From IMG/VR virus record IMGVR_UViG_2778261088_000009, positions 1 through 9,712 of that record: a DNA stretch of 9,712 bases; one strand, given 5' to 3'. The notes under the pieces are model-generated. The model was not told the DNA's origin. It saw only the letters and a program-made list of their open reading frames with translations, and searched no databases. This document shows, one piece after another, positions 1 to 9,712 of the stretch. This DNA is from a virus. Lineage: Duplodnaviria; Heunggongvirae; Uroviricota; Caudoviricetes. The position numbers were made by a program, and so were the translations under genes. Position 1 is the stretch's first letter; every line of letters starts with the position of its first letter.

Positions 1-1158
1 ATGCTCACCGTTAAGCAGATTGAAGCAGCAAAGCCGAAAGAAAAACCATACCGCCTACTCGATGGTAATGGCCTGTACCTTTATGTCCCTGTATCAGGGA
101 AAAAGGTATGGCAGCTTCGCTACAAGATTGACGGTAAGGAGAAAATCCTGACTGTCGGAAAATATCCGCTTATGACTTTGCAGGAAGCAAGGGATAAGGC
201 ATGGACTGCGAGGAAAGACATCTCGGTTGGCATCGATCCGGTAAAGGCGAAAAAGGCTTCGTCTAACAACAATTCCTTTAGTGCGATTTACAAGGAATGG
301 TACGAGCACAAGAAGCAAGTCTGGTCAGTAGGCTATGCAAACGAACTTGCCAAAATGTTTGACGACGACATTTTACCTATCATCGGCGGCCTTGAAATTC
401 AGGATATTGAGCCGATACAACTGCTGGAAGTAATCCGCAGATTTGAAGATCGCGGTGCAATGGAGCGAGCCAACAAAGCACGTAGAAGATGCGGCGAGGT
501 TTTCCGTTACGCTATTGTCACCGGAAGGGCTAAATATAACCCGGCACCTGACCTTGCAGACGCCATGAAAGGATATCGCAAGAAGAACTTCCCGTTTTTA
601 CCTGCCGACCAGATCCCGGCATTCAACAAAGCACTGGCAACATTTTCAGGAAGTATCGTATCGCTCATTGCGACCAAAGTTTTACGCTACACAGCCCTCA
701 GAACAAAAGAGCTTCGTTCCATGCTATGGAAGAACGTCGATTTTGAAAACAGGATTATCACCATCGACGCCAATGTGATGAAGGGACGCAAGATTCATGT
801 GGTTCCGATGTCGGACCAGGTTATTGAACTTCTCACTACGCTAAGCTCAATCACTAAACCGGTATCAGAGTTTGTTTTTGCCGGACGCAACGATAAGAAG
901 AAGCCAATCTGCGAGAACGCGGTGCTACTTGTGATCAAACAAATCGGCTATGAGGGGCTGGAAAGCGGTCACGGATTCAGGCATGAATTCAGCACGATTA
1001 TGAACGAGCACGAATGGCCTGCCGACGCCATTGAAGTGCAACTGGCACATGCCAACGGCGGATCTGTGCGTGGGATTTACAACCATGCTCAGTATCTCGA
1101 TAAGCGCAGAGAAATGATGCAGTGGTGGGCTGACTGGATTGATGAAAAGGTGGAGTGA
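1..1158 (+). CDS. int: Phage integrase, tyrosine recombinase of the P4-like family (N-terminal arm-binding domain plus C-terminal catalytic domain)
   Basis: Complete 385-aa ORF starting at ATG at base 1. N-terminus (KPYRLLDGNGLYLYV...WQLRYKIDGKE) matches the P4-type integrase N-terminal domain. C-terminus HGFRHEFST...QLAHANGGSVRGIYNHAQYLDKRREMMQWWADWI carries the conserved R...H-x-x-R...Y tyrosine-recombinase signature. Length and sequence resemble enterobacterial argW-associated prophage integrases (IntS-like), from memory only. Confidence 0.93.
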   Translation: MLTVKQIEAAKPKEKPYRLLDGNGLYLYVPVSGKKVWQLRYKIDGKEKILTVGKYPLMTLQEARDKAWTARKDISVGIDPVKAKKASSNNNSFSAIYKEWYEHKKQVWSVGYANELAKMFDDDILPIIGGLEIQDIEPIQLLEVIRRFEDRGAMERANKARRRCGEVFRYAIVTGRAKYNPAPDLADAMKGYRKKNFPFLPADQIPAFNKALATFSGSIVSLIATKVLRYTALRTKELRSMLWKNVDFENRIITIDANVMKGRKIHVVPMSDQVIELLTTLSSITKPVSEFVFAGRNDKKKPICENAVLLVIKQIGYEGLESGHGFRHEFSTIMNEHEWPADAIEVQLAHANGGSVRGIYNHAQYLDKRREMMQWWADWIDEKVE

Positions 1159-1182
1159 TCCACCTTAACAACTATCGAAGAG

Positions 1183-1233
1183 CACAAAGCCTTGCAATCC
1201 AGTGCAAAGCTTTGTGTGTCTCAGTTTTGTTTC
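1183..1233 (+). terminator. Candidate rho-independent terminator downstream of int
   Basis: Hairpin at 1183-1216: 14-bp stem with one mismatch (cacaaagccttgca / tgcaaagctttgtg) and 6-nt loop, followed by a T-rich tract (tgtctcagttttgttt). Begins about 25 nt after the int stop codon. Confidence 0.5.
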
Positions 1234-1357
1234 ATCGGTAACAGCACGCCATAGAATGCTGACTTGCTTGATGTGTCTGCGGATCGCGATCCTTCAGTGC
1301 CCACTTAGTAGACAAGCGTTTGCAATCTTAGTGTTCAAACAAAGACAATATGTGGTA

Positions 1358-1432
1358 TTGTACCAATTGCAGTTTTATCTATTAACATGAAGCTATATTT
1401 ACAAGAATTTAGTAATTATCTATAGGTATAAC
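1358..1432 (+). promoter_or_regulatory. Candidate sigma70-like promoter(s) for the acetyltransferase gene
   Basis: AT-rich region with TTGTAC (1358-1363), 16-bp spacer, TATTAA (1380-1385); alternatively TTTACA (1398-1403), 17-bp spacer, TATAGG (1421-1426). Hexamers in AT-rich DNA are weak evidence. Confidence 0.3.
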
Positions 1433-1433
1433 A

Positions 1434-2078
1434 ATGAATTTTCCTGGCCCAGCATCAACTGCTTCTTATTTAAGATCTAATTACAGCAGAGATTTCTTGA
1501 CTATTCAGTGTGGTGAATACACATACGGAAAACCAAGAATTGAGATTGGGATGCATGACGACAAGCGAATTCTTTCAATTGGTGAATATTGCTCTATAGC
1601 TTTCGACGTTGTGATTTTTGTTGGAAGACAAGGTCGTCATGCGACAAATACATTAACAAGTTACCCGCTAAATATGGTTGTAGATCCTGAGTTAAGAAAT
1701 GGATTTAACCCTACAGGACATATATGGCAGGCGAGCTCTGACATATTTGGGAAAGATCTTGATGTTATCATAGGGCATGATGTATGGATTGGTTCTAGAT
1801 GTACAATTTTAGCAGGGGTTAATATTGGAACTGGTGCCATCATTGCCGCAGGCTCTGTTGTTACTAAAGATGTACCGCCATATGCAATTGTAGGAGGAGT
1901 ACCAGCTAAGGTTATTAGATACAGACATCCTCCAGAAATAATTGATAGATTATTAAAGACTGAATGGTGGAAGTTAAAACCTAATGAGCTGTGGAATTTG
2001 ATTGGTTCATCTTTCGGGACGTCTAATATTGAAATCCCATTAAAAATATTAGAAAACAGAAGCGCTTCAGAAAAATAA
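1434..2078 (+). CDS. Hexapeptide-repeat (left-handed beta-helix) acetyltransferase of the XAT class (Vat / CatB-like xenobiotic acetyltransferase)
   Basis: 214-aa ORF. Shows the motifs I associate with streptogramin A (Vat) and CatB-type acetyltransferases: N-terminal GEYTYG, the H-A-T-N-T...SYPL segment with the presumed catalytic His, hexapeptide repeats (IIGHDVWIGSRCTILAGVNIGTGAIIAAGSVVTKDVPPYAIVGGVPAKVIR) and a C-terminal LL-x-x-EWW motif. The gene and its flanks are visibly AT-rich compared with int and the tailspike 5' half. Confidence 0.85.
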   Translation: MNFPGPASTASYLRSNYSRDFLTIQCGEYTYGKPRIEIGMHDDKRILSIGEYCSIAFDVVIFVGRQGRHATNTLTSYPLNMVVDPELRNGFNPTGHIWQASSDIFGKDLDVIIGHDVWIGSRCTILAGVNIGTGAIIAAGSVVTKDVPPYAIVGGVPAKVIRYRHPPEIIDRLLKTEWWKLKPNELWNLIGSSFGTSNIEIPLKILENRSASEK

Positions 2079-2092
2079 AATAATATTTATTA

Positions 2093-2122
2093 AGGCCATG
2101 CTCCCCACTGAAAGCATGGCCT
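2093..2122. terminator. Bidirectional rho-independent terminator between the convergent acetyltransferase and tailspike genes
   Basis: Perfect 10-bp inverted repeat aggccatgct / agcatggcct (2093-2102 and 2113-2122) with a 10-nt loop, flanked by A/T-rich tracts on both sides. Lies between the two convergent stop codons (2078 and 2173). Confidence 0.6.
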
Positions 2123-2172
2123 ATTGTATTAAATATTTATACCTTTGATAATTTTTACTTTATTAAAGCATG

Positions 2173-4608
2173 TTATATATTTTCTCTCATTTCTATCATT
2201 TCAATTCTAGATAATGCTTTTTGGTAATTCCTGCGTTGTAATGCAGCTTCAAGGACTAAAGCCTCTTCATAACGGATACCATAACGTGAGCCTGCAGGAG
2301 TGACCAGAATATCTTCATATTCTGGATCTGCCTCTTCTTCATACTCTTCTTCGACTTCTTGAAACTCTGTCTCGATGTACTCCTCTTCTACATCTTCAAC
2401 TACAGGGACGCTCACGAATGGATTTTGCGCAAAAGGTGAACCATCTTCATTAAGAACAGGTATCATTTCCATTTTTGGAGTCTGATACTCTTCATTCACT
2501 ACTCGTTTAATCCGTGTTCCGTCTTCCAGTACCTCATCCTTTAATACCTGACGACTCTCAGTAACCATCACTGGTTTGCTTACAATTCGAGTTTTAGTAA
2601 CCTGCACTGGAACTGTTGTTATGCGAGTTTTAGTAACCATTACACCTTCGTTTGTCTGAACCTTAGTATATTGATCATCCCACTCGTCAAAGCAAAAGAA
2701 TCCAAATCGGTGCGCATCAAGTCCATGACGCTCAAACGCCTCTTTCGCACGCTGAGCGATCACACCAAAATGCCAGCGCGCCCCGTCCTCACCTTTTTCT
2801 TCCACCCTGTCGAGATACTGGAACTGCACAAAATCTACCTCCGACCAGGCATCCAGAATCGCATCAGCAAAAGATGGTTGCATCAATCGTTCGTCTGATG
2901 TGACAACAAAATCAAGCACCCCACGGGCGAGGATCGGAGGGTTTTTCGTTTTGTGATTCTCATCTGACGTTACGGTGAAGGCTGTCTGTGTGGCCCCGCC
3001 AGCCCAAGCAAGAGCAGCCGTGCCGCAATTAATGGCATTTGTGGTGGTTGGCGTGAGCGCCTTATTTACTGTAACAGTGCCAGTGCCAAGTGCCTCCAGC
3101 GCAATTGAACAATTGCTGATACCTTCGGCACTGATCCTGATGCGAGGATCCGTGATGCTTGCAGTACGCAGGCGAACTGCTCCAGTATCACCGTCTGCAT
3201 AGGACAGGCGAAAGGCCCTCAGCCCATTTCCTTCTAAATCAAAGCTTCGGTCCCTAAATACAGCTCCCATACGCACAGCATTGTTGGACACGCGAGATTG
3301 TAAGTAGCTAAGGCTATTGCCCGCCCCGTCCTCCCAACCTATCCGGTGGGTATTTCGCATAACAATGGCTTTCTGGTATACATCTGTTAAGCCAGACTCA
3401 GTGAAGGTTCTCAAAGATCCGATAGGATATGCAATGCCTGCTCCCCACTTAGATCCATTGGAACTAATGGCTAACGCCTGTGTGCAATCCTCAGTTGTGC
3501 CATTGATTGTCGGGTCTGCACCTGCAACCAAAGATATACCAGTGGTCTTACCACGGTTATCTGCGCTATGCATGTCTACGTAGGTGCCGTGGTTAACTAT
3601 CGCCATCTCAGCACACCAGGTAGTGCCCTTTGCATTGGGGTAACGTTTTGCATCTAAGTATAACGCCCAAACGTTATTGGTTACACCTGATTCATTATCG
3701 TTAACTCCCACTCCAACCACGCCAATAGCGGCACCACCAGTAGGCATTTCTTTATTATGTGCCGCTCCAGCCATACCAATGGCCCCAGTTGAAGAATAGG
3801 ACGCAAAGGTGGCGTTTTTCTCGACCCATCCCAGATTTGGCTGAAGTGTCCCATTGGGGGCTACATAATCTTTCTTCCCCAGCCAGGTACTTTGATCTAC
3901 AGGCGCATCCTTTGCACCTGAATAATCAAAGGCGGCGTCCCCAACAAATAAACGCGGATACCTGGAGGAGTTAACTGGTGTTCCAGGCTCAGACCAAACA
4001 GGACGCCGCTTAAGCATCACGCCGCCAGTGCCTAAAAACTCGGCTTCACTGTCTACAATAAAATTACCTCTATGGAAGGAATTTAATAGATATTTCCCGG
4101 CAGGGACATAAACATCTCCAGCAAACAAGGCCGCAACTGCAAATGAACTGTCCGAGTTATTAGCGCCTGTTGAATCTGCTCCTCCAGCAAATCCACTCCA
4201 AGTAACAGGCTTTGCTAATCCTCCGACAAATCCAGCTCCACCAGGACCCTCCAGTTCAGATCGCAGTTGATCAGGGTCATACTTCAGCACATTAGGAAAA
4301 TAGAACTGCTGCGCACCATATGCATCATATACAGCCATAGAATGGCCTTGCACGGTTACGAATTTGGCAATCTGTCCGTTATATACTGGATACCCTGCGG
4401 CATTGATGACGATCGGCTGTGCAACAGGAACGTGAGAACCATCTTCGTTCTCAACATAGACCTGAATCTGGTTATCAGGATTTACCGGGTCAGTGTCAAT
4501 TTTACCGATATAAATTTTGCCATTAGCCACGGCTTTAAAAGAACGAGCCATAGTGAAGAGTTGCGAAGGCATACTCACTACAACATTGGCATTTATCGAA
4601 TCTGTCAT
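2173..4608 (-). CDS. Tailspike protein, mosaic: P22-type head-binding N-terminal domain, unrelated central (receptor-binding / depolymerase-like) body, C-terminal intramolecular-chaperone-like domain
   Basis: 811-aa ORF with a GGAG Shine-Dalgarno about 9 nt upstream of the ATG at 4606-4608. The first ~115 aa ([44 protein letters not shown]...[15 protein letters not shown]...NVLKYDPDQ) are near-identical in pattern to the P22 gp9 head-binding domain as I remember it. The central region is Gly/Ala/Thr/Asn-rich with no P22 similarity. The last ~240 aa (from [12 protein letters not shown]) resemble the auto-cleaving C-terminal chaperone domains of endosialidase and T5-pb1-type fibers and end in a highly acidic tail. 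Confidence 0.9.
2587..2638. repeat. Tandem direct repeat inside the tailspike 3' coding region
   Basis: 15-16-nt unit (t/g)cgagttttagtaacc at 2587-2602 and 2623-2638 (36-nt period), encoding the repeated peptide VTKTRI in the tailspike C-terminal domain. Confidence 0.7.
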
Positions 4609-4648
4609 TTAATTTGCTCCAGATACAAGGAATCGCCGCAGCATGGCT

Positions 4649-4771
4649 ACGGTGAATTTTTTTGTGATAAAACAACTTTTTAGGAAGTTATTTTGTTCGC
4701 TTTTTGCACTACACTTTTTGTGTAGTGCTCTCCTTCAAGCTCATTACCTAAGCGTGGACACGGTGAATTTT
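4649..4771. repeat. Pair of direct repeats (ACGGTGAATTTT) upstream of the tailspike start
   Basis: Exact 12-mer acggtgaatttt at 4649-4660 and 4760-4771, with extended similarity over about 19 nt (gcatggctacggtgaatttt vs gcgtggacacggtgaatttt). Candidate regulator binding sites; function unknown. Confidence 0.4.
4706..4728. promoter_or_regulatory. Perfect 9-bp inverted repeat (gcactacac-ttttt-gtgtagtgc), operator-like or RNA hairpin
   Basis: Perfect palindrome arms at 4706-4714 and 4720-4728 with a 5-nt loop, about 100 nt upstream of the tailspike ATG. Not followed by a U-tract on either strand, so not a canonical terminator. Confidence 0.3.
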
Positions 4772-4776
4772 GGGCA

Positions 4777-4801
4777 TAAAAAAACCCAGCCGAAGCTGGG
4801 T
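4777..4801 (-). terminator. Rho-independent terminator (first of a tandem pair) downstream of the 322-aa gene
   Basis: On the minus strand: stem acccagc / gctgggt (7 bp) with tetraloop, followed by a run of 6-7 U (plus-strand A-run 4778-4784). Confidence 0.6.
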
Positions 4802-4850
4802 CGTTGCGTTGGTTATCTGTCAGTAGTTATGTGCTGGCTGAAGGATTTGT

Positions 4851-4877
4851 ACAAAAAACCCACCTGAAGGTGGGTTT
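4851..4877 (-). terminator. Rho-independent terminator immediately after the stop codon of the 322-aa gene
   Basis: 9-bp stem (4856-4864 / 4869-4877) with tgaa loop, followed on the minus strand by a T-rich tract. Starts about 6 nt after the TAA at 4883-4885. Confidence 0.55.
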
Positions 4878-4882
4878 CATAA

Positions 4883-5851
4883 TTAGATTTCTGGTTTCAT
4901 TCTTCCGAAAACCTTTTCTATTCCTTTTTCGTATTCTTCTCTTGTCTCACTCATCGCTGCGACACCAAGAAGCTTACCGATATGCTGACGCAAAGCCTTG
5001 ACACCAATTTCAGAAAGGAACAGATGCAACTTATCAGATTGTTTTCCGTTCTCGTCTCGGCTGGCTCGAATCTGTTCAAGGATTTTACCTTTACTCTTTG
5101 CTAGCGGGGTGTATATCTGCATGTTGGTTAGCTGCCCAAAACGAATAGGCCGTCCTTTCTCTGGCCTATTCAGGCCGTACAGTCGATACCACTCCTCGTA
5201 TAGCTCATCTGGAAATTCCTTTTCATATTGACGAGCCTCTTCACGAACAAACGCTTTGAACTCGTCAATGACAGCCTGAACTTCTGGACGATAACCAGCA
5301 AGCGCATACGCAACCCCCTTAATTCCCGCCTTAGCGGAGGCATTAATAAGTCTCTGTGCTGCGGCGGCTGCCTTTAACCGTGATTGTGGTAGATCGTCAT
5401 TATCTTTGGCTTCTATTAGTGCCCTACCAATATCAACAATTGCTGTAATGTCATAACCTAACGCTTGATGAACGGTTTTAGACTTCGAAGTAAGTTGAAA
5501 TTTATAGGGATTTTCCATTTTTCGCTGCAATTCTAGATCTCGGTATTTGCTCATATACTGAGCGCCAAGCAGTTGATCTAAATCCCTGGCATGTTCACCA
5601 ATCCCTAGCAACTGAGATAATCCAGTTTTCGTAACAACGACAGTTTTCGACTCGTCATCCAGTACATAACATTCAGCATCAATGCCAAAATCATCTAAAA
5701 AGTTACCACGATGAGTTGCCCTGAGAATCTTACTTTTCCATCTTGCAGCAGCTGCTTTCTTTGCTATTTCAGAACGCTGCTCTTTAGTCAGCGACTTTGC
5801 GCGAGCGATCCCGCCCTTAGCTTTCCCTTCGCCACTTTTCTTTTCAGTCAT
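4883..5851 (-). CDS. Hypothetical protein (322 aa) with a basic N-terminal motif; occupies the position held by the antirepressor/immunity-I genes in P22
   Basis: Long minus-strand ORF. I place the start at the ATG at 5849-5851 (MTEKKSGEGKAKGG...) because AAAGGTG sits 9 nt upstream; the track's longer start at 5914 adds 21 implausible residues. The N-terminus GGIARAKSLTKEQRSEIAKKAAAARW looks like a basic nucleic-acid-binding motif. No family assigned with confidence. Confidence 0.8.
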   Translation of the reverse strand: MTEKKSGEGKAKGGIARAKSLTKEQRSEIAKKAAAARWKSKILRATHRGNFLDDFGIDAECYVLDDESKTVVVTKTGLSQLLGIGEHARDLDQLLGAQYMSKYRDLELQRKMENPYKFQLTSKSKTVHQALGYDITAIVDIGRALIEAKDNDDLPQSRLKAAAAAQRLINASAKAGIKGVAYALAGYRPEVQAVIDEFKAFVREEARQYEKEFPDELYEEWYRLYGLNRPEKGRPIRFGQLTNMQIYTPLAKSKGKILEQIRASRDENGKQSDKLHLFLSEIGVKALRQHIGKLLGVAAMSETREEYEKGIEKVFGRMKPEI

Positions 5852-5944
5852 AATGCAAGCACCTTTGTTGTGATGTATGCTTGCATTATATGCACTGTAC
5901 ACACATACAAGCAAGCATAAAACAAAAACAAAATGCTTGCATTA
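5850..5944. promoter_or_regulatory. Two operator-like palindromes built from four copies of the half-site TAATGCAAGCA in the divergent intergenic region
   Basis: Palindrome 1: 12-bp arms ataatgcaagca (5850-5861) and tgcttgcattat (5878-5889), 16-bp spacer, covering the -10 and the start codon of the 322-aa gene. Palindrome 2: arms gcaagcat (5911-5918) and atgcttgc (5933-5940, extending to atgcttgcatta), 14-bp spacer, overlapping the -35. Centres are about 56 bp apart. Confidence 0.55.
5885..5914 (-). promoter_or_regulatory. Candidate sigma70 promoter for the 322-aa gene
   Basis: On the minus strand: TTGCTT (5909-5914), 18-bp spacer, perfect TATAAT (5885-5890). Leaves a ~26-nt leader containing the AAAGGTG Shine-Dalgarno. 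Both hexamers overlap the palindromic half-sites in the next feature. Confidence 0.5.
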
Positions 5945-6007
5945 CAACCGCGCTACTCCAACTACACATTATCATCTGGTATCCTGCTCAAAACTAAGGA
6001 GGTTGGT

Positions 6008-6331
6008 GTGTATACAACAGTTATCGTGATAGCTATCGCACTCATTGTGGTTCAGTACCAACTGGCATCTTTAAAACAAAAGATATCTGACCTCAAGACT
6101 GAGAACGAAGCACTTAAAAACTCAATAAAAGATGAGAAGAACAAACTATCATTCACCATATCTGATGTTGAGCAATCCATTGAAATTATTGAGAATAATA
6201 TTAACAGGCTAAAAAAAGAAGATATTCATGAAATCAATGACAATATCAAGGATTTGAAATCTTGGCTTAGGAATGTAGGACAAATCGCCACATCAACACG
6301 AGATAAGCTCAATCCATCCATGGATGATTAA
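6008..6331 (+). CDS. Small bitopic membrane protein with coiled-coil domain (107 aa from GTG 6008; track ORF starts at 5933)
   Basis: Strong AAGGAGG Shine-Dalgarno at 5996-6002, 5 nt before an in-frame GTG at 6008. Product starts with a hydrophobic helix (YTTVIVIAIALIVVQY) followed by heptad-like Lys/Glu/Asn-rich sequence (LKQKISDLKTENEALKNSIKDEKNKL...). AT-rich codon usage unlike the neighbouring late genes. Confidence 0.6.
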   Translation: MYTTVIVIAIALIVVQYQLASLKQKISDLKTENEALKNSIKDEKNKLSFTISDVEQSIEIIENNINRLKKEDIHEINDNIKDLKSWLRNVGQIATSTRDKLNPSMDD

Positions 6332-6679
6332 TTACTCCTGTGCCATTCCGCTTAGCGACGCTACAATGCCAGCCCTCGCTAAGCGATTGAACTCTTCGTT
6401 TCCAACTGCATCACGTATTGCTTTTATGGCGACTTTATTTGCCATAAATCTGCGTTCCGCCGCCGCTAATGCTTCTTTGCTTCCACCTGCTCTTACTGCT
6501 TTGGTGGCTTCCTGAACAGCTTTCTCTATCGCATATCGACCACTACGTGTGGTGGCAATTTTAGATACAGCGCCTTTTAACCCGGCGCCAACTAAAGCAC
6601 CCGCGGCAGCGCCTGCAATGCCCCCTCCAGCGCCACCAACAATGGCACCTGATGTTGAGTTGGCAATTGCATTTAACAC
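6332..6679 (-). CDS. Hypothetical glycine-zipper protein (115 aa, GTG start)
   Basis: Minus-strand ORF beginning at a GTG that overlaps the upstream stop (GTGTTAA). N-terminal Gly/Ala-rich hydrophobic segment [28 protein letters not shown] is typical of glycine-zipper membrane-inserting helices. Could be a separate coupled gene or the 3' part of one frameshifted gene with the 149-aa ORF. Confidence 0.5.
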
Positions 6680-7122
6680 TGTTGATGTGACGTTGGATAC
6701 CCACCAATTGTTTCACCGGCTTGCGCGTAAGGGTCTGTCGGTCGATCGACTGGACGATAGACATCATCCAAAACCTTGGGTCCACCAAGCCCCTGACTGA
6801 TTGCATTAATCAGACTTGCGCCGCCCTGCAATACGTCAAATGGTATGTTTACCAGACCACGACCAGCCTGTTCTGCAATTTGCCCTGCACTTTGACCACC
6901 TGTGAGCCAATCATCAGCTTGTTGCATCAATGATGGTTCTTCTTTCTGCTGCTGAGGCGGAGGGTATGCTGCATAAAACTGATCTCTTGCTTCAGCCCAT
7001 TTGTCACCAGCCTTAGGGGCAACAACCTCATCAAAATATTGCGCTTGAGCCTGTGCTTTCTGTTCTTCAGTTAACGCCTGATACTGTGGAGAAGCGATAA
7101 CATCTTTCCATGCTTTAGCCAT
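6673..7122 (-). CDS. Hypothetical protein (149 aa), Gln/Ala/Pro-rich; possible virion internal or ejection-type protein
   Basis: Its ATG at 7120-7122 overlaps the TAA of the upstream 449-aa gene (TAATG), indicating translational coupling. Low-complexity Q/A/P-rich composition. No confident family assignment. Confidence 0.6.
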
Positions 7123-8471
7123 TAATCACCCCATAAAGACGAGAAACCGGACTTATTGCTGTCGCTTCCTGATTTTCGCTCACTAACATATGTGTCATAA
7201 CCTGATGAACTATATCCCATTGATTCAGCCTCCCTTGCTGCAACCTTTTGAAATACAGAATATTGCGATCGGATTTCAGATAACTGTTTTCTGACGACCT
7301 CTTCAGGCTGTGTTATATCGAGTTTCGCGATCAGGTTTTCCAGTTTTTGGCCTTCAGCATTGGAGAGGCTACCCATACCTCGCATAGTCTGCACGTTCTG
7401 GACAAACGCACCCGACTTTAATTCTTCTATCGCATTACGGTTTGCAAGCCCTTCAGCACTTGTGAAGCCATCTATATTTCTTCCTTCGAAGCGACCGATA
7501 CCTTCAAGCTCCTTCTTACCAAGCAAAGAATCAATTTTCTCTATCCCTCGCTCACCAGTAATCAACGCATTGTTGTAATTATTGTTGCCATCAAGCCATC
7601 TCTTAGCCTGAGACATTCTGGCTGACGTTGCAGCTTTACCGGTTAGAGGATCAATTCCCGTCGCTGCTATCTGTGAGTTAAGAGACAAAACATCCATATC
7701 CTGAAGTTGTCCTGCTCTTTCAAGGCCCGCCTGTGACTGCTTAAACACATACTTGTCGTGATTCAGTCTTGCCATTTGAGCCTTATAGGAAAGATCCTGC
7801 CCCCTAATAGCCCTCGCATTCGTCATGTCATTATTGCGAATGGTTTCGTTAATTCTTTGCTGCTCCTGCTGGCGACCAACCATCTTATCCTGAACAGCAA
7901 ACGCCTTTTCTGGCCCAAGTGCACCGAGAGACATAGTAGTCAGCATGTGTGATAGCTGCTCTGGATTCTGGATACCTGTCTGAATCATCCAGTCAGCATT
8001 CGCCCCCACGCGATTTAACCTGTCCTTGTTGTCAGTAATGAATTTACTGTAGGCTTCCGGCCCCTGAGAAAGAGCGACGTTAGCCCTCATGGCTAAATCG
8101 CCCATATCGTTGCGTTGCTGCTCATTAAGACCGGAAAATGCCTGTTGTGCCTGTGCAACAAACGCTGGATTTTCCTGGGCAAACTTAAATAGTCCCGATG
8201 GATCACCAGAAGCCCATGCATCAGCGTGAACCTTATTGAACGCACTAATAGCTTTCTGTTGCTGTTCCTGATTGTAAATATCAGCAACTCCAGCCAGACC
8301 ACGTAACGCGGTCAGACCAACGTTATTTGCACCTGAGCGAGCCAGTTCATTGTTTTCGCGGATCAGACCAAGCGTTGCGTTAATGTCGCTTGCCTTTGGC
8401 GCATTCTCATTTTGCGTACCGATGCCAGCCAGAAAACCACCAGAATTAATACCCTGTTGCCACGTAGCCAT
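7122..8471 (-). CDS. Hypothetical protein (449 aa), Gln/Asn/Ala-rich; possible virion internal or ejection-type protein
   Basis: Long ORF whose ATG (8469-8471) lies 2 nt after the stop of the gp4-like remnant, with AAGGGG Shine-Dalgarno. Its position after coat and gp4 in a P22-like late operon suggests a virion component. No similarity to P22 gp10 or gp26 as I remember them. Confidence 0.7.
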
Positions 8472-8473
8472 GA

Positions 8474-8719
8474 TTACCCCTTAAAACAACGAGCCAAGCA
8501 GACCAAGACCAGCACCGATAACGGCATGATGCCGTTTTCTGTATCCGCAAACTGATATCCAAGCTCGATACCTTTCGCCTGCCATGCTGCCATCATGTCT
8601 TCGAGGTCATTAATGGCATCTTCAATTGCCTGAGGGTCAGCATCTGTCAACGTGGCATTGGAATACAGCCCGGCTTTTCGTAAAGCCTTTAGAACGAGAT
8701 CACCCTTCGTTTTCGCCAT
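8474..8719 (-). pseudogene. N-terminal remnant of a gp4-like tail accessory (head completion) gene
   Basis: 81-aa ORF. The first ~66 aa ([62 protein letters not shown]) track the P22 gp4 N-terminus as I remember it. The ORF then ends after 18 unrelated residues ([18 protein letters not shown]), whereas P22 gp4 is about 166 aa. The break coincides with a 17-bp palindrome at 8520-8536. Confidence 0.55.
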
Positions 8720-8888
8720 CTTCTTCCGCCTTAGCCACTTTTTGCTTCGTTGCGGTTTCTTCAGGAGTTTTTACCCAACCTTTTTTCAGGTGAGATTTAA
8801 CTTCTTCGTCATCAACAATGATGTAATCGACAGCAAACTGACCACAGGTGATCATGTTGCCAGGCTTATAGAGCATTGTTCGTGCCAT
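8700..8888 (-). CDS. Small hypothetical protein (62 aa from the internal ATG at 8886-8888) between coat and the gp4-like gene
   Basis: ATG at 8886-8888 preceded by GGGAGAAG about 6 nt upstream and located just downstream of the coat terminator hairpin. The track's longer start at 8927 would overlap that hairpin. Codon usage resembles neighbouring genes. Its 3' end overlaps the gp4-like start by 20 nt. Confidence 0.45.
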
Positions 8889-8900
8889 TGTCTTCTCCCA

Positions 8901-8922
8901 ATAAAAATGGGGCCGAAGCCCC
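8901..8922 (-). terminator. Rho-independent (probably partial) terminator immediately after the coat gene
   Basis: On the minus strand: GGGGC-UUCG-GCCCC (5-bp GC stem with UUCG tetraloop; plus-strand 8909-8922) followed by AUUUUUAUU. Begins 8 nt after the coat TAA at 8930-8932. Confidence 0.55.
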
Positions 8923-8929
8923 GCCAAAA

Positions 8930-9712
8930 TTACTGCCCGGCAATAACGATGCCCGTATATTCAGGAACAAGTACAGAGCAACCATACAGAGTGGTGAAAC
9001 GAGCAGTGGTTACGCCTTTGATGTGGTCGAAGGCGTAAGACATGATCAGCGTAGCGCCCTGCTCGGTGGTTGCTGTCATTACCTGTGGACCCTGACCAGT
9101 CGGGAACGCCAGTTTGCCGTACATCAGCTCAACAGAACCATCAGCCCAGAACAGGTTAGCCGGTGCGGCATTTTTGTTGAGAATGGTAATTGCTGCACCA
9201 TTTGCCGCGTTAGCATCAACGTTTGCATATGGTCGGCTGGCGACATCCGCGTTGTCAGGCGGCAGAATTTTCGGGGAGATAGTTACTGTCGTTCCGCTTA
9301 CTGCCAGAACGCGGAATACCTGCGGCTGCCCGGTGGTGTCTTTGGTGATCTGGTGTACAGAATTCACGCCAGCAATGGTGAACGCATCGCCAACCTGCAA
9401 CCCAGATGCAGATACCGTAATAGTCCCCTGTCGGTTATCCACTGGCATATCGTTGGCATCTTTCGCTTCAACCTTGTGCGCAGGTTCAGCCGCCAGCGTC
9501 AGGGAAGTTGCTGTACCCTTCGGAACACGACCAGAAATATCCGTCTTGTAGCTATCGAAGGACGCAACCGGAGGGATCTGCGCTTTTTCGTATGCTGTCA
9601 GGGTTGCGCCCTGAGCATAGGCACGGTGACCAAGCTCGCCAGCAAGGTCTTTGTAGTTGAAGGGGTTCCAGAAAGAGCGGCGGTTGATACCCTGTGGTAT
9701 CGGCCTTGGCAC
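8930..9712 (-). CDS. Major capsid (coat) protein, P22 gp5-like, 5'-truncated by the window edge (C-terminal ~260 aa present)
   Basis: The ORF runs off the right edge; the leading 'M' in the track is a GTG at the window boundary, not a start. Translation aligns by eye with the C-terminal ~260 aa of P22 coat as I remember it (SFWNPFNYKDLAG vs SYFFNPQDYKKAG; RPYANVDANAANGAAITILNKNAAPANLFWADGS vs [34 protein letters not shown]). Confidence 0.9.
   Translation of the reverse strand: MPRPIPQGINRRSFWNPFNYKDLAGELGHRAYAQGATLTAYEKAQIPPVASFDSYKTDISGRVPKGTATSLTLAAEPAHKVEAKDANDMPVDNRQGTITVSASGLQVGDAFTIAGVNSVHQITKDTTGQPQVFRVLAVSGTTVTISPKILPPDNADVASRPYANVDANAANGAAITILNKNAAPANLFWADGSVELMYGKLAFPTGQGPQVMTATTEQGATLIMSYAFDHIKGVTTARFTTLYGCSVLVPEYTGIVIAGQ

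Follow-up and report, generated by a model that had tools for sequence, protein, structure and literature searches.

A P63C-domain gene and hkcB as probably independent cargo cassettes in the ant moron of a decaying P22-like prophage

The 'ant moron' of P22-type phages is a cargo hotspot that was described in 2008, when one of its genes, hkcB, was listed as being of unknown function (Villafane et al. 2008, PMC2629481). In P22, immunity I (mnt, arc, ant and sar) resides in this hotspot, and sieA follows immediately at the 3′ end of gene 16, but is encoded on the other strand, convergent with it and with the two stop codons abutting. Mutations that permit escape from the exclusion protein SieA affect the C-terminal regions of gp16 and gp20 (Leavitt et al., PMC10883804). 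Another point of reference is BstA of prophage BTP1, which causes abortive infection and is accompanied by a DNA self-immunity element, aba (PMC8585504). Here, we describe two divergent genes that a P22-like (Lederbergvirus) prophage carries in its ant moron, one encoding a 322-aa P63C-domain protein and the other being hkcB. They are located in IMG/VR record IMGVR_UViG_2778261088_000009, of which positions 1 to 9,712 were analysed; this whole stretch of 9,712 nucleotides is referred to as the window. The hotspot, hkcB and the P63C domain are already known from the literature or databases, and the same gene order has been deposited before (ON470589 and several RefSeq Escherichia coli genomes). 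As detailed below, the two genes are very probably cargo cassettes that are independent of each other and occupy a known hotspot in a decaying prophage. As an overall explanation we lean towards two unrelated 'moron' cassettes in a P22-type ant moron, in which HkcB would be a candidate SieA-like excluder and the P63C protein an autoregulated DNA-binding accessory protein.

Assortment of the two genes and the loss of immunity I

The P63C gene occupies positions 4883-5851 on the minus strand (ATG at 5849-5851) and is transcribed toward the tailspike gene, as had been proposed from the sequence, and hkcB occupies positions 6008-6331 on the plus strand. Profile searches placed the larger product in the P63C family (PF10546 and phrog_2384) and the smaller one in the HkcB family (phrog_5962), with no homology to Ant. 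The initial annotation had regarded the two genes as one candidate exclusion or abortive-infection module, and it is this idea that their distribution contradicts. In E. coli prophages, an identical P63C protein (WP_000136767) adjoins hkcB of type 1, hkcB of type 2, a gene for a 75-aa protein with two transmembrane (TM) segments or a gene for a 122-aa protein; in Salmonella, the same protein is encoded beside SieA, a lipoprotein or nothing. The neighbours of hkcB vary likewise, being hkcC in HK620, the gene for the gp15 lipoprotein in epsilon34 and other genes in CUS-3. Among the IMG/VR loci, P63C was present in 13 of 63 hkcB loci. Of the 80 closest P63C loci, 27 lie in a P22-like late region and 53 outside, and hkcB was detected in 8 of these 27. 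Complete E. coli genomes (5426) gave a similar picture, with 289 matching part of the pair and 13 matching at least 80% of it. The pair does recur, namely in 13 IMG/VR loci, but each gene is mostly found without the other.

The location of the genes had been recognised correctly, since the interval corresponds to the P22 ant moron, or immunity-I hotspot. Also in line with the initial annotation, the 322-aa gene is separated from the tailspike gene by two intrinsic terminators in tandem. The first (4850-4878, minus strand; -14.9 kcal/mol, U6) lies just past the P63C stop codon and is the bidirectional mnt-end terminator of epsilon34 and HK620, with 100% identity to the one annotated in epsilon34. 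The second (4776-4802, minus strand; -14.1 kcal/mol, U7), which is of the tANT type, is located upstream of the tailspike gene and matches tANT of HK620. Together, they are the counterparts of tMNT and tANT as annotated in HK620 and epsilon34. A tblastn panel detected no Mnt, Arc or Ant in the window beyond the last nine codons of mnt (4838-4864, plus strand), and this remnant is all that the interval holds of a small ribbon-helix-helix repressor gene, the lack of which had been noted before. The degraded immunity-I (immI) region is 95% identical over 126 bp to its HK620 counterpart. Judged by these alignments, the mnt remnant marks a deletion of mnt-arc-ant, and the missing immI of the window is a local deletion like that of HK620. 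Compared with P22, the window uses the same hotspot and retains the mnt and ant terminators together with nine mnt codons, but mnt-arc-ant is deleted, and the P63C protein is not a homologue of Ant, most related loci having both P63C and immI. Because mnt, arc and ant are also present in most P63C loci, the comparison indicates that P63C is not an immunity-I substitute.

The P63C cassette and its repeats

The P63C family (PF10546) is named after p63 of Myxococcus phage Mx8, and the 322-aa protein is a clear member, with a full-length match to phrog_2384 (E 1.7e-104, residues 6-321) and a match to PF10546 over residues 199-286 (E 6.8e-14; 52.7 bits versus a gathering cutoff of 26.1). We found 1682 full-length homologues, and 64 columns were invariant in 18 sequences of the family down to 48% identity. 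From its N-terminus, the protein comprises a basic motif (residues 9-38) and a beta/alpha domain (~40-150); the C-terminal half is helical and contains the P63C domain (199-286). The basic character of its N-terminus, which had been pointed out earlier, is reflected in 14 K/R versus 4 D/E within residues 1-45. An AlphaFold2 (AF2) model of medium quality, with a predicted local distance difference test (pLDDT) score of 68, displayed two N-terminal helices followed by the same beta/alpha domain and helical C-terminal half. No solved structure was related to the protein by sequence or fold. Weak structure matches in BFVD included many Bro-N proteins, and weak similarity to small DNA-binding folds was observed; we treat these matches as a lead only, toward a possible DNA-binding or Bro-N-like domain. 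That neither protein of the pair is Mnt, Arc or Ant held upon closer inspection: hhalign of the P63C protein against P22 Ant returned a probability of 0.13, there was no match to Pfam P22_AR_N or P22_AR_C, and an identity as antirepressor was rejected on these grounds.

The 160 bp upstream of the P63C gene travels with the gene into every context examined, including Salmonella sieA loci, non-P22 enterobacterial loci and slots between Q and the lysis genes. Within this stretch, the P63C promoter is embedded in four operator-like 10-bp copies of ATGCAAGCAT. The -10 hexamer TATAAT (5885-5890, minus strand), read from the sequence, is separated by an 18-nt spacer from the -35 hexamer TTGCTT (5909-5914, minus strand). 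In P63C sense, O1 (TAATGCAAGCAT, 5933-5944) lies upstream of the promoter, O2 (ATGCTTGCTTG, 5908-5918) overlaps the -35 hexamer, O3 (ATGCAAGCAT, 5877-5888) is joined to the -10 and spans the site at which transcription is expected to begin, and O4 (GTGCTTGCATTA, 5851-5862) overlaps the ribosome-binding site (RBS) and start codon of the P63C gene. The general layout on the P63C strand is O1 ATGCAAGCAT, ~15 nt, O2 ATGCTTGCwT with the -35 inside, 17-18 nt, a TAnnAT -10 fused to O3 (AT)GCAAGCAT, 14-17 nt with the Shine-Dalgarno sequence, and O4 rTGCTTGCATG. In distant loci, the ATG forms the last three bases of this O4 motif, and in loci of many phyla a TAnnAT hexamer stands directly 5′ of GCAAGCA, the -10 being always fused to O3 and the ATG to O4.

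The repeats are as widespread as this layout suggests. At least two copies of GCAAGCA were present in the upstream 168 nt of 58 of 79 genome loci, which were taken from one-genome-per-species contigs of Proteobacteria, Acidobacteriota, Myxococcota and Firmicutes, versus 1.3% of control windows, and at least two copies of this core were found upstream in all 79 evaluable IMG/VR loci. Motif and protein vary together: eight loci have GCAAGTA instead, and the single protein column that sets these apart from 57 GCAAGCA loci, K32A, falls inside the N-terminal basic motif. Even remote homologues preserve the arrangement: L0095 of phage 933W (27% identity) has the same layout with ACGTGCA, and ST104 ORF23 (29% identity) retains ATGCAAGCA. 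In one Salmonella locus (L085, 5898-6000; L numbers denote individual loci), the O1-O3 stretch is lost and the -35 and -10 of P63C are gone with the gene being kept, apparently through recombination between motif copies.

We propose that the P63C protein binds the ATGCAAGCAT sites via its N-terminal basic helical motif, possibly with a Bro-N-like domain, and that binding would repress its own promoter, with O2 acting on the -35, O3 on the -10 and +1, and O4 on the RBS and ATG. Since the P63C protein is the sole constant partner of the sites, we consider it probable that it is a sequence-specific DNA-binding autorepressor. We regard the P63C gene as a self-standing cassette of one gene, with a promoter of its own, a set of four operator-like repeats (10 bp each) and a terminator. 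The effector part would be the conserved P63C C-terminal half, for which a BstA-like DNA-directed defence role or a regulatory role appears most likely.

The cassette has several other homes. ST104 ORF23 lies between cI and gene 24, in the rexAB/bstA slot, and 933W L0095 is situated in the nin region, beside roi. In at least 20 IMG/VR phage contigs (L130-L150), a 78%-identical P63C cassette is located between a Q-like antiterminator gene and the holin-endolysin-Rz genes, which is the slot of stx in Stx phages. In distant bacteria, P63C is flanked by a divergent IS1-like DDE transposase gene (matches to DDE_Tnp_IS1 and NF033558). At 23 of these loci, identical inverted repeats of 19-23 bp (GGTAGTGGGTCAGTTTGAAAT) bracket a P63C unit of 2.5-4.7 kb, and 20 of the 23 show perfect 8-bp target duplications. 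These units, present in at least 23 distant genomes, are IS1-family transposons in which P63C is a passenger, and they have their GGnnnTG-type inverted repeats, DDE transposase and 8-bp duplications in common with the IS1-family elements that carry passenger genes (transporter insertion sequences, IS). They contain the transposase gene, the P63C gene and a small open reading frame (ORF), and occur in metagenome-assembled genomes and genomes of several phyla (loci L010-L081; for example L016, 9036-11560, and L057, 8672-11305). The small ORF, of 80-95 aa, is convergent with and downstream of P63C (L011, 10971-11246; L016, 10980-11231; and 29 other loci). Its C-terminus repeats the P63C N-terminal motif, KGG.ARA..L..E.R..IAKKAA..RW. 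It has no Pfam or NCBIfam match, and it is absent from the window. In the IS1-type elements, O1 overlaps the -35 of the divergent transposase promoter. The copy in the window differs in that it holds just the gene and the operator/promoter block: no transposase gene, IS end, inverted-repeat match or IS remnant was detected in the window.

Two accounts of what the P63C protein does are, in our view, possible but unlikely, and one is about as likely as the other. According to the first, it would mediate abortive infection as BstA does: as a sensor that binds DNA, it would attack the replicating DNA of foreign phages, with the repeat array serving as an aba-like element for self-immunity or titration. 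Both proteins are single-gene prophage morons of similar size (~310 aa for BstA) and two-domain layout with a putative N-terminal DNA-binding domain, and in both cases the start of the gene is overlapped by a conserved DNA element, aba in the case of bstA (PMC8585504). Furthermore, the distant homologue ST104 ORF23 occupies the same slot as bstA between cI and N, the weak BFVD matches are enriched for Bro-N proteins, and a local motif matches BstA where its KilA-N-like domain begins. This match was, however, short (BLASTP E 0.038), hhalign returned a probability of just 4.7%, and no PADLOC model matched at E up to 10; on these results, membership of the BstA family was ruled out. The window copy, moreover, sits in the ant moron, away from the repressor, and carriage by IS elements outside phage contexts needs no defence role.

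According to the second account, the P63C protein is purely a transcription regulator or antirepressor-type protein from the Bro-N / KilA-N / Ant domain-shuffling pool, without a role in defence, which would tune phage genes such as the slot gene or read-through into the tailspike gene, or cross-talk with repressors. This is consistent with the autoregulatory layout, with immI as a neighbour in most loci, with the position of 933W L0095 adjoining roi in the nin region, and with the weak similarity to Bro-N and small DNA-binding folds. Phage-specific targets are nevertheless hard to reconcile with a ~320-aa protein that is conserved at 45-50% identity across phyla and is carried on IS in phage-free surroundings, and there is no similarity to P22 Ant.

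Several points weigh against our reading of the P63C gene. The protein has no match in PADLOC (E up to 10) or NCBIfam, the K32A correlation comes from 8 related loci, and the repeats could be bound by another factor. In addition, O3 and O4 can form an RNA hairpin (-16.4 kcal/mol, z -3.1) in which the start codon is paired. Transposase mRNAs of IS10 and IS50 are insulated from read-through by such hairpins. The ATGCAAGCAT repeats might act mainly as RNA and not as protein operators: in transcripts that read through from the late operon, or into the IS from outside, the RBS and ATG would be buried and the gene thereby insulated, an explanation that we find doubtful. The transcript from the cassette's own promoter is expected to start inside O3 and would be without the 5′ arm, and therefore the hairpin, which would bury the start codon, is possible only in read-through transcripts. 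However, it is the sequence itself, beyond complementarity, that is conserved across phyla; O1 and O2 lie upstream of the promoter, and motif changes in subfamilies are mirrored in all copies. The RNA and operator roles are compatible, and the hairpin may represent a second role of the repeats next to that of operators for the P63C protein.

HkcB in the slot of sieA

The small gene belongs, by its sequence, to the family of HK620 hkcB and epsilon34 gp14. The divergent plus-strand ORF at 5933-6331 proved genuine, and reading from ATG 5933 it would encode 132 aa, as annotated in some records. We rejected this start in favour of GTG 6008. The match to phrog_5962 (E 2e-58) is limited to residues 26-132 of the longer reading, most hkcB homologues are 107 aa long, a strong RBS (AAGGAGG, 5996-6002) precedes GTG 6008, and the joint at 5977-6011 keeps this RBS and GTG in loci with other slot genes. 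For these reasons, the product is most likely a 107-aa protein starting at GTG 6008, and the in-frame upstream ATG is probably unused. The earlier description of an AT-rich divergent gene for a bitopic coiled-coil membrane protein was right in its base composition (G+C of 0.35-0.38 over 6001-6300 versus 0.45-0.53 in the flanks) and in its single N-terminal hydrophobic segment (residues 1-24), and needed correction for the start. HkcB consists of an N-terminal membrane anchor, a helical rod of ~80 residues and a conserved C-terminal motif, W..NVG.IA.STRDK.NPS. The AF2 model was one helix (residues 2-101, pLDDT 79). A crude count of heptads yielded no single register, and PADLOC gave coiled-coil noise only, to SMC-like models at E >= 5e-4, with no specific match to a model of known defence systems (PADLOC 2.0), and NCBIfam had no specific match either. 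In view of the single helix and the coiled-coil noise, we consider the rod to be helical and probably a coiled coil.

The protein is 98% identical to gp14 of epsilon34, 96% identical to HkcB of CUS-3 (type 1) and 49-55% identical to a second type found in HK620 and vB_EcoP-611R6. The match to the family extends over the whole 107-109-aa protein, and the gene lies immediately 3′ of gene 16 on the opposite strand, as in these relatives. The only differences are that its neighbour in the window is P63C instead of hkcC or gp15 and that the prophage is defective, neither of which is substantive. The family is small, comprising 21 clusters among 5.8 billion proteins, all of them enterobacterial.

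The position and orientation of hkcB are those of P22 sieA. In related loci, this slot contains SieA, a 161-aa lipoprotein, the 75-aa protein with two hydrophobic segments, the 122-aa protein, HkcB of type 1 or 2, or nothing, and all genes seen there encode envelope proteins (SieA, lipoprotein, 2-TM protein and HkcB). Slot genes of all types start at the conserved junction 5977-6011, which supplies the RBS (5996-6002) and GTG (6008). The blastn breakpoints, the restriction of E. coli matches to query 1095-1128 and the upstream alignments identify this junction as the joint at which P63C cassette and slot gene have recombined. On the P63C strand, the boundary sequence AGTTTTGAGCAGGATACCA (window 5977-6011) flanks P63C cassettes of P22-type ant morons, and it recurs in Stx phage 933W (L098), where it lies upstream of L0095, the distant homologue encoded in the nin region; this suggests a shared cassette end. 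On its other side, the slot gene adjoins gene 16. When the last 100 aa of gp16 were compared among 13 loci, hkcB-1 loci were 97-99% identical to one another, hkcB-2 loci 94-100% and SieA loci 99%, versus ~20% between the hkcB and SieA groups. This indicates that the type of slot gene tracks the gp16 C-terminal type and not P63C.

From the slot position, the envelope location and the gp16 linkage we infer that HkcB may be a SieA-like exclusion protein. As an inner-membrane-anchored helical rod expressed from the prophage, it would act on incoming P22-like phages by disturbing their gp7/gp20/gp16 ejection conduit, with a specificity matched to the accompanying gp16 C-terminal type. That HkcB blocks DNA delivery by P22-like phages is a tentative proposal, drawn by analogy with SieA; for both genes of the pair, an exclusion or defence role would be argued from position. 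The two slot proteins share the site and orientation, the RBS and GTG junction, the envelope location and a linked gp16 C-terminal type, but they differ in build: SieA of P22 has 3-4 TM helices and an FxRYPxEAxxFNK motif (PMC10883804), and HkcB has one TM helix and a rod. HkcB had no Pfam match to the SieA family (PF26849), and the tblastn panel detected no sieA in the window. With one hydrophobic segment versus three in SieA by the same scan, and with the motif being absent, HkcB was ruled out as a member of the SieA family.

Several of our observations count against an exclusion role. HkcB has neither sequence, TM number nor motif in common with SieA. The co-variation of hkcB and gp16 could reflect physical linkage alone, as the genes abut and 13 loci were compared. 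The charges flanking the hydrophobic segment are nearly balanced (K/R 4, D/E 3), so that the rod could be cytoplasmic, and a consensus scan upstream of 6008 revealed no convincing sigma-70 promoter for hkcB; by eye, the only candidate was TTGCAT, inside O1, with a poor -10. Instead of excluding other phages, HkcB might serve the phage's own cycle, as a spanin-like protein or an accessory in ejection or assembly, or be a neutral remnant. We deem this improbable. Weak PHROG matches to Rz-like spanins (E ~1e-3), the tight link to gene 16 and the negative promoter scan speak for it. Yet, hkcB is on the opposite strand to the late operon and outside the lysis cassette, no o-spanin partner ORF is present, many viable P22-like phages, P22 included, lack hkcB, and the gene is intact (98% identity) although the prophage has lost virion genes. 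As an Rz-like i-spanin, HkcB was rejected because its matches are weak and compositional only, with the gene placed between gene 16 and the P63C gene and no partner ORF.

Least likely of all is a module in which the two genes act as the two components of exclusion or abortive infection, with a membrane effector and a cytoplasmic sensor or regulator: they are divergent neighbours with a common 156-bp control region and O1 on the hkcB side, and their pairing recurs in vB_EcoP-611R6, 13 E. coli genomes and 13 IMG/VR loci, but each is far commoner without the other, P63C occurs across phyla without any hkcB, hkcB is confined to its 21 enterobacterial clusters, and a conserved recombination joint separates them.

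The decaying prophage and the meaning of its cargo

According to Pfam, PHROG and BLAST searches, the window belongs to a P22-like (Lederbergvirus) prophage, at its integrase-proximal end, and these matches indicate a decaying prophage of the CUS-3/HK620-like P22 type. Its late genes are on the minus strand and comprise the C-terminal part of the coat protein gene (8930-9712), a small ORF, a truncated gene 4 (8474-8719), gene 20 (7122-8471), gene 16 in two pieces (6673-7122 and 6332-6679) and, past the interval with hkcB and P63C, the tailspike gene (2173-4608, with Head_binding and Peptidase_S74 matches). The second piece of gene 16 is convergent with hkcB and encodes a gp16 C-terminal fragment matching phrog_770 positions 592-666. 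Beyond the tailspike gene follow a hexapeptide O-acetyltransferase gene (1434-2078, plus strand) and the gene for IntS (1-1158). The prophage is defective. Positions 6696-8526 are 98% identical to CUS-3, and at a joint at ~8526 the last 55 nt of gene 7 are fused to codon 64 of gene 4, this deletion having removed genes 10, 26 and 14 and most of gene 7. A second, frameshifting deletion of 1366 bp affects gene 16, with its joint at ~6696-6699. Despite the lost virion genes, hkcB, the P63C gene and the tailspike, acetyltransferase and int genes are all intact, and the intactness of the two cargo genes speaks for our overall explanation. A comparable decay of gp4 and gp16 was seen in E. coli NRZ100214 (L094).

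Some further features of the window are worth recording. The tailspike protein (811 aa) combines a head-binding domain of the P22 type with a Peptidase_S74 domain (intramolecular chaperone, residues 582-630) and an unusually long, acidic, repeat-like C-terminal tail. Between the start of its gene and the tANT terminator, a 90-bp insert (4661-4750, within 4640-4771) with 21-bp direct repeats at its ends (AGCATGGCTACGGTGAATTTT and AGCGTGGACACGGTGAATTTT) contains a hairpin with a 9-bp stem (4706-4728); HK620, epsilon34 and 611R6 are without this insert. The acetyltransferase gene is AT-rich (G+C 0.35-0.39) and lies between the tailspike gene and int, where P22-like phages keep their O-antigen conversion genes, and its product resembles CatB/Vat xenobiotic acetyltransferases with scores well under their cutoffs.

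The searchable literature did not contain a description of the sieA-slot cassette junction and its linkage to the gp16 C-terminus, nor of the P63C operator architecture, the N-terminal KGG..ARW motif or the carriage of P63C by IS1-family elements. Papers retrieved with 'P63C' mostly concerned p63 or a crystallographic space group, mentions of the 'P63C domain' were incidental, nothing was found on L0095, and nothing useful was found on IS1 passengers. The junction and gp16 linkage, the operator architecture and the IS1 carriage concern the families rather than this window.

In a broader interpretation, which we consider a long shot, P63C proteins would be widespread, unrecognised single-gene cassettes for DNA-sensing defence or addiction, BstA-like and with the repeats as self-recognition DNA, and HkcB would be a structurally new SieA-like injection blocker matched to gp16 of the CUS-3/HK620 type. 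If this were true, P63C would bind the 10-bp motif, shut off its own promoter and, in the IS1-type transposons, that of the transposase, and would protect its carrier, be it a prophage, a transposon or the host, from incoming phage.

Together, these findings mean that the claim of a new two-gene defence module falls and that the interval holds ordinary mosaic cargo in a known hotspot. The sieA slot is a cassette site: at a conserved RBS and GTG junction, envelope proteins without relation to one another are exchanged in parallel with the C-terminus of gp16, which puts HkcB and the other slot proteins forward as direct candidates when new injection blockers are sought. The P63C family, which has been without a function since its definition and here proves to have a cis-regulatory layout shared across phyla and to ride in an active IS1-family transposon, gains a set of handles in the form of a predicted binding site, a promoter and a candidate reading head.

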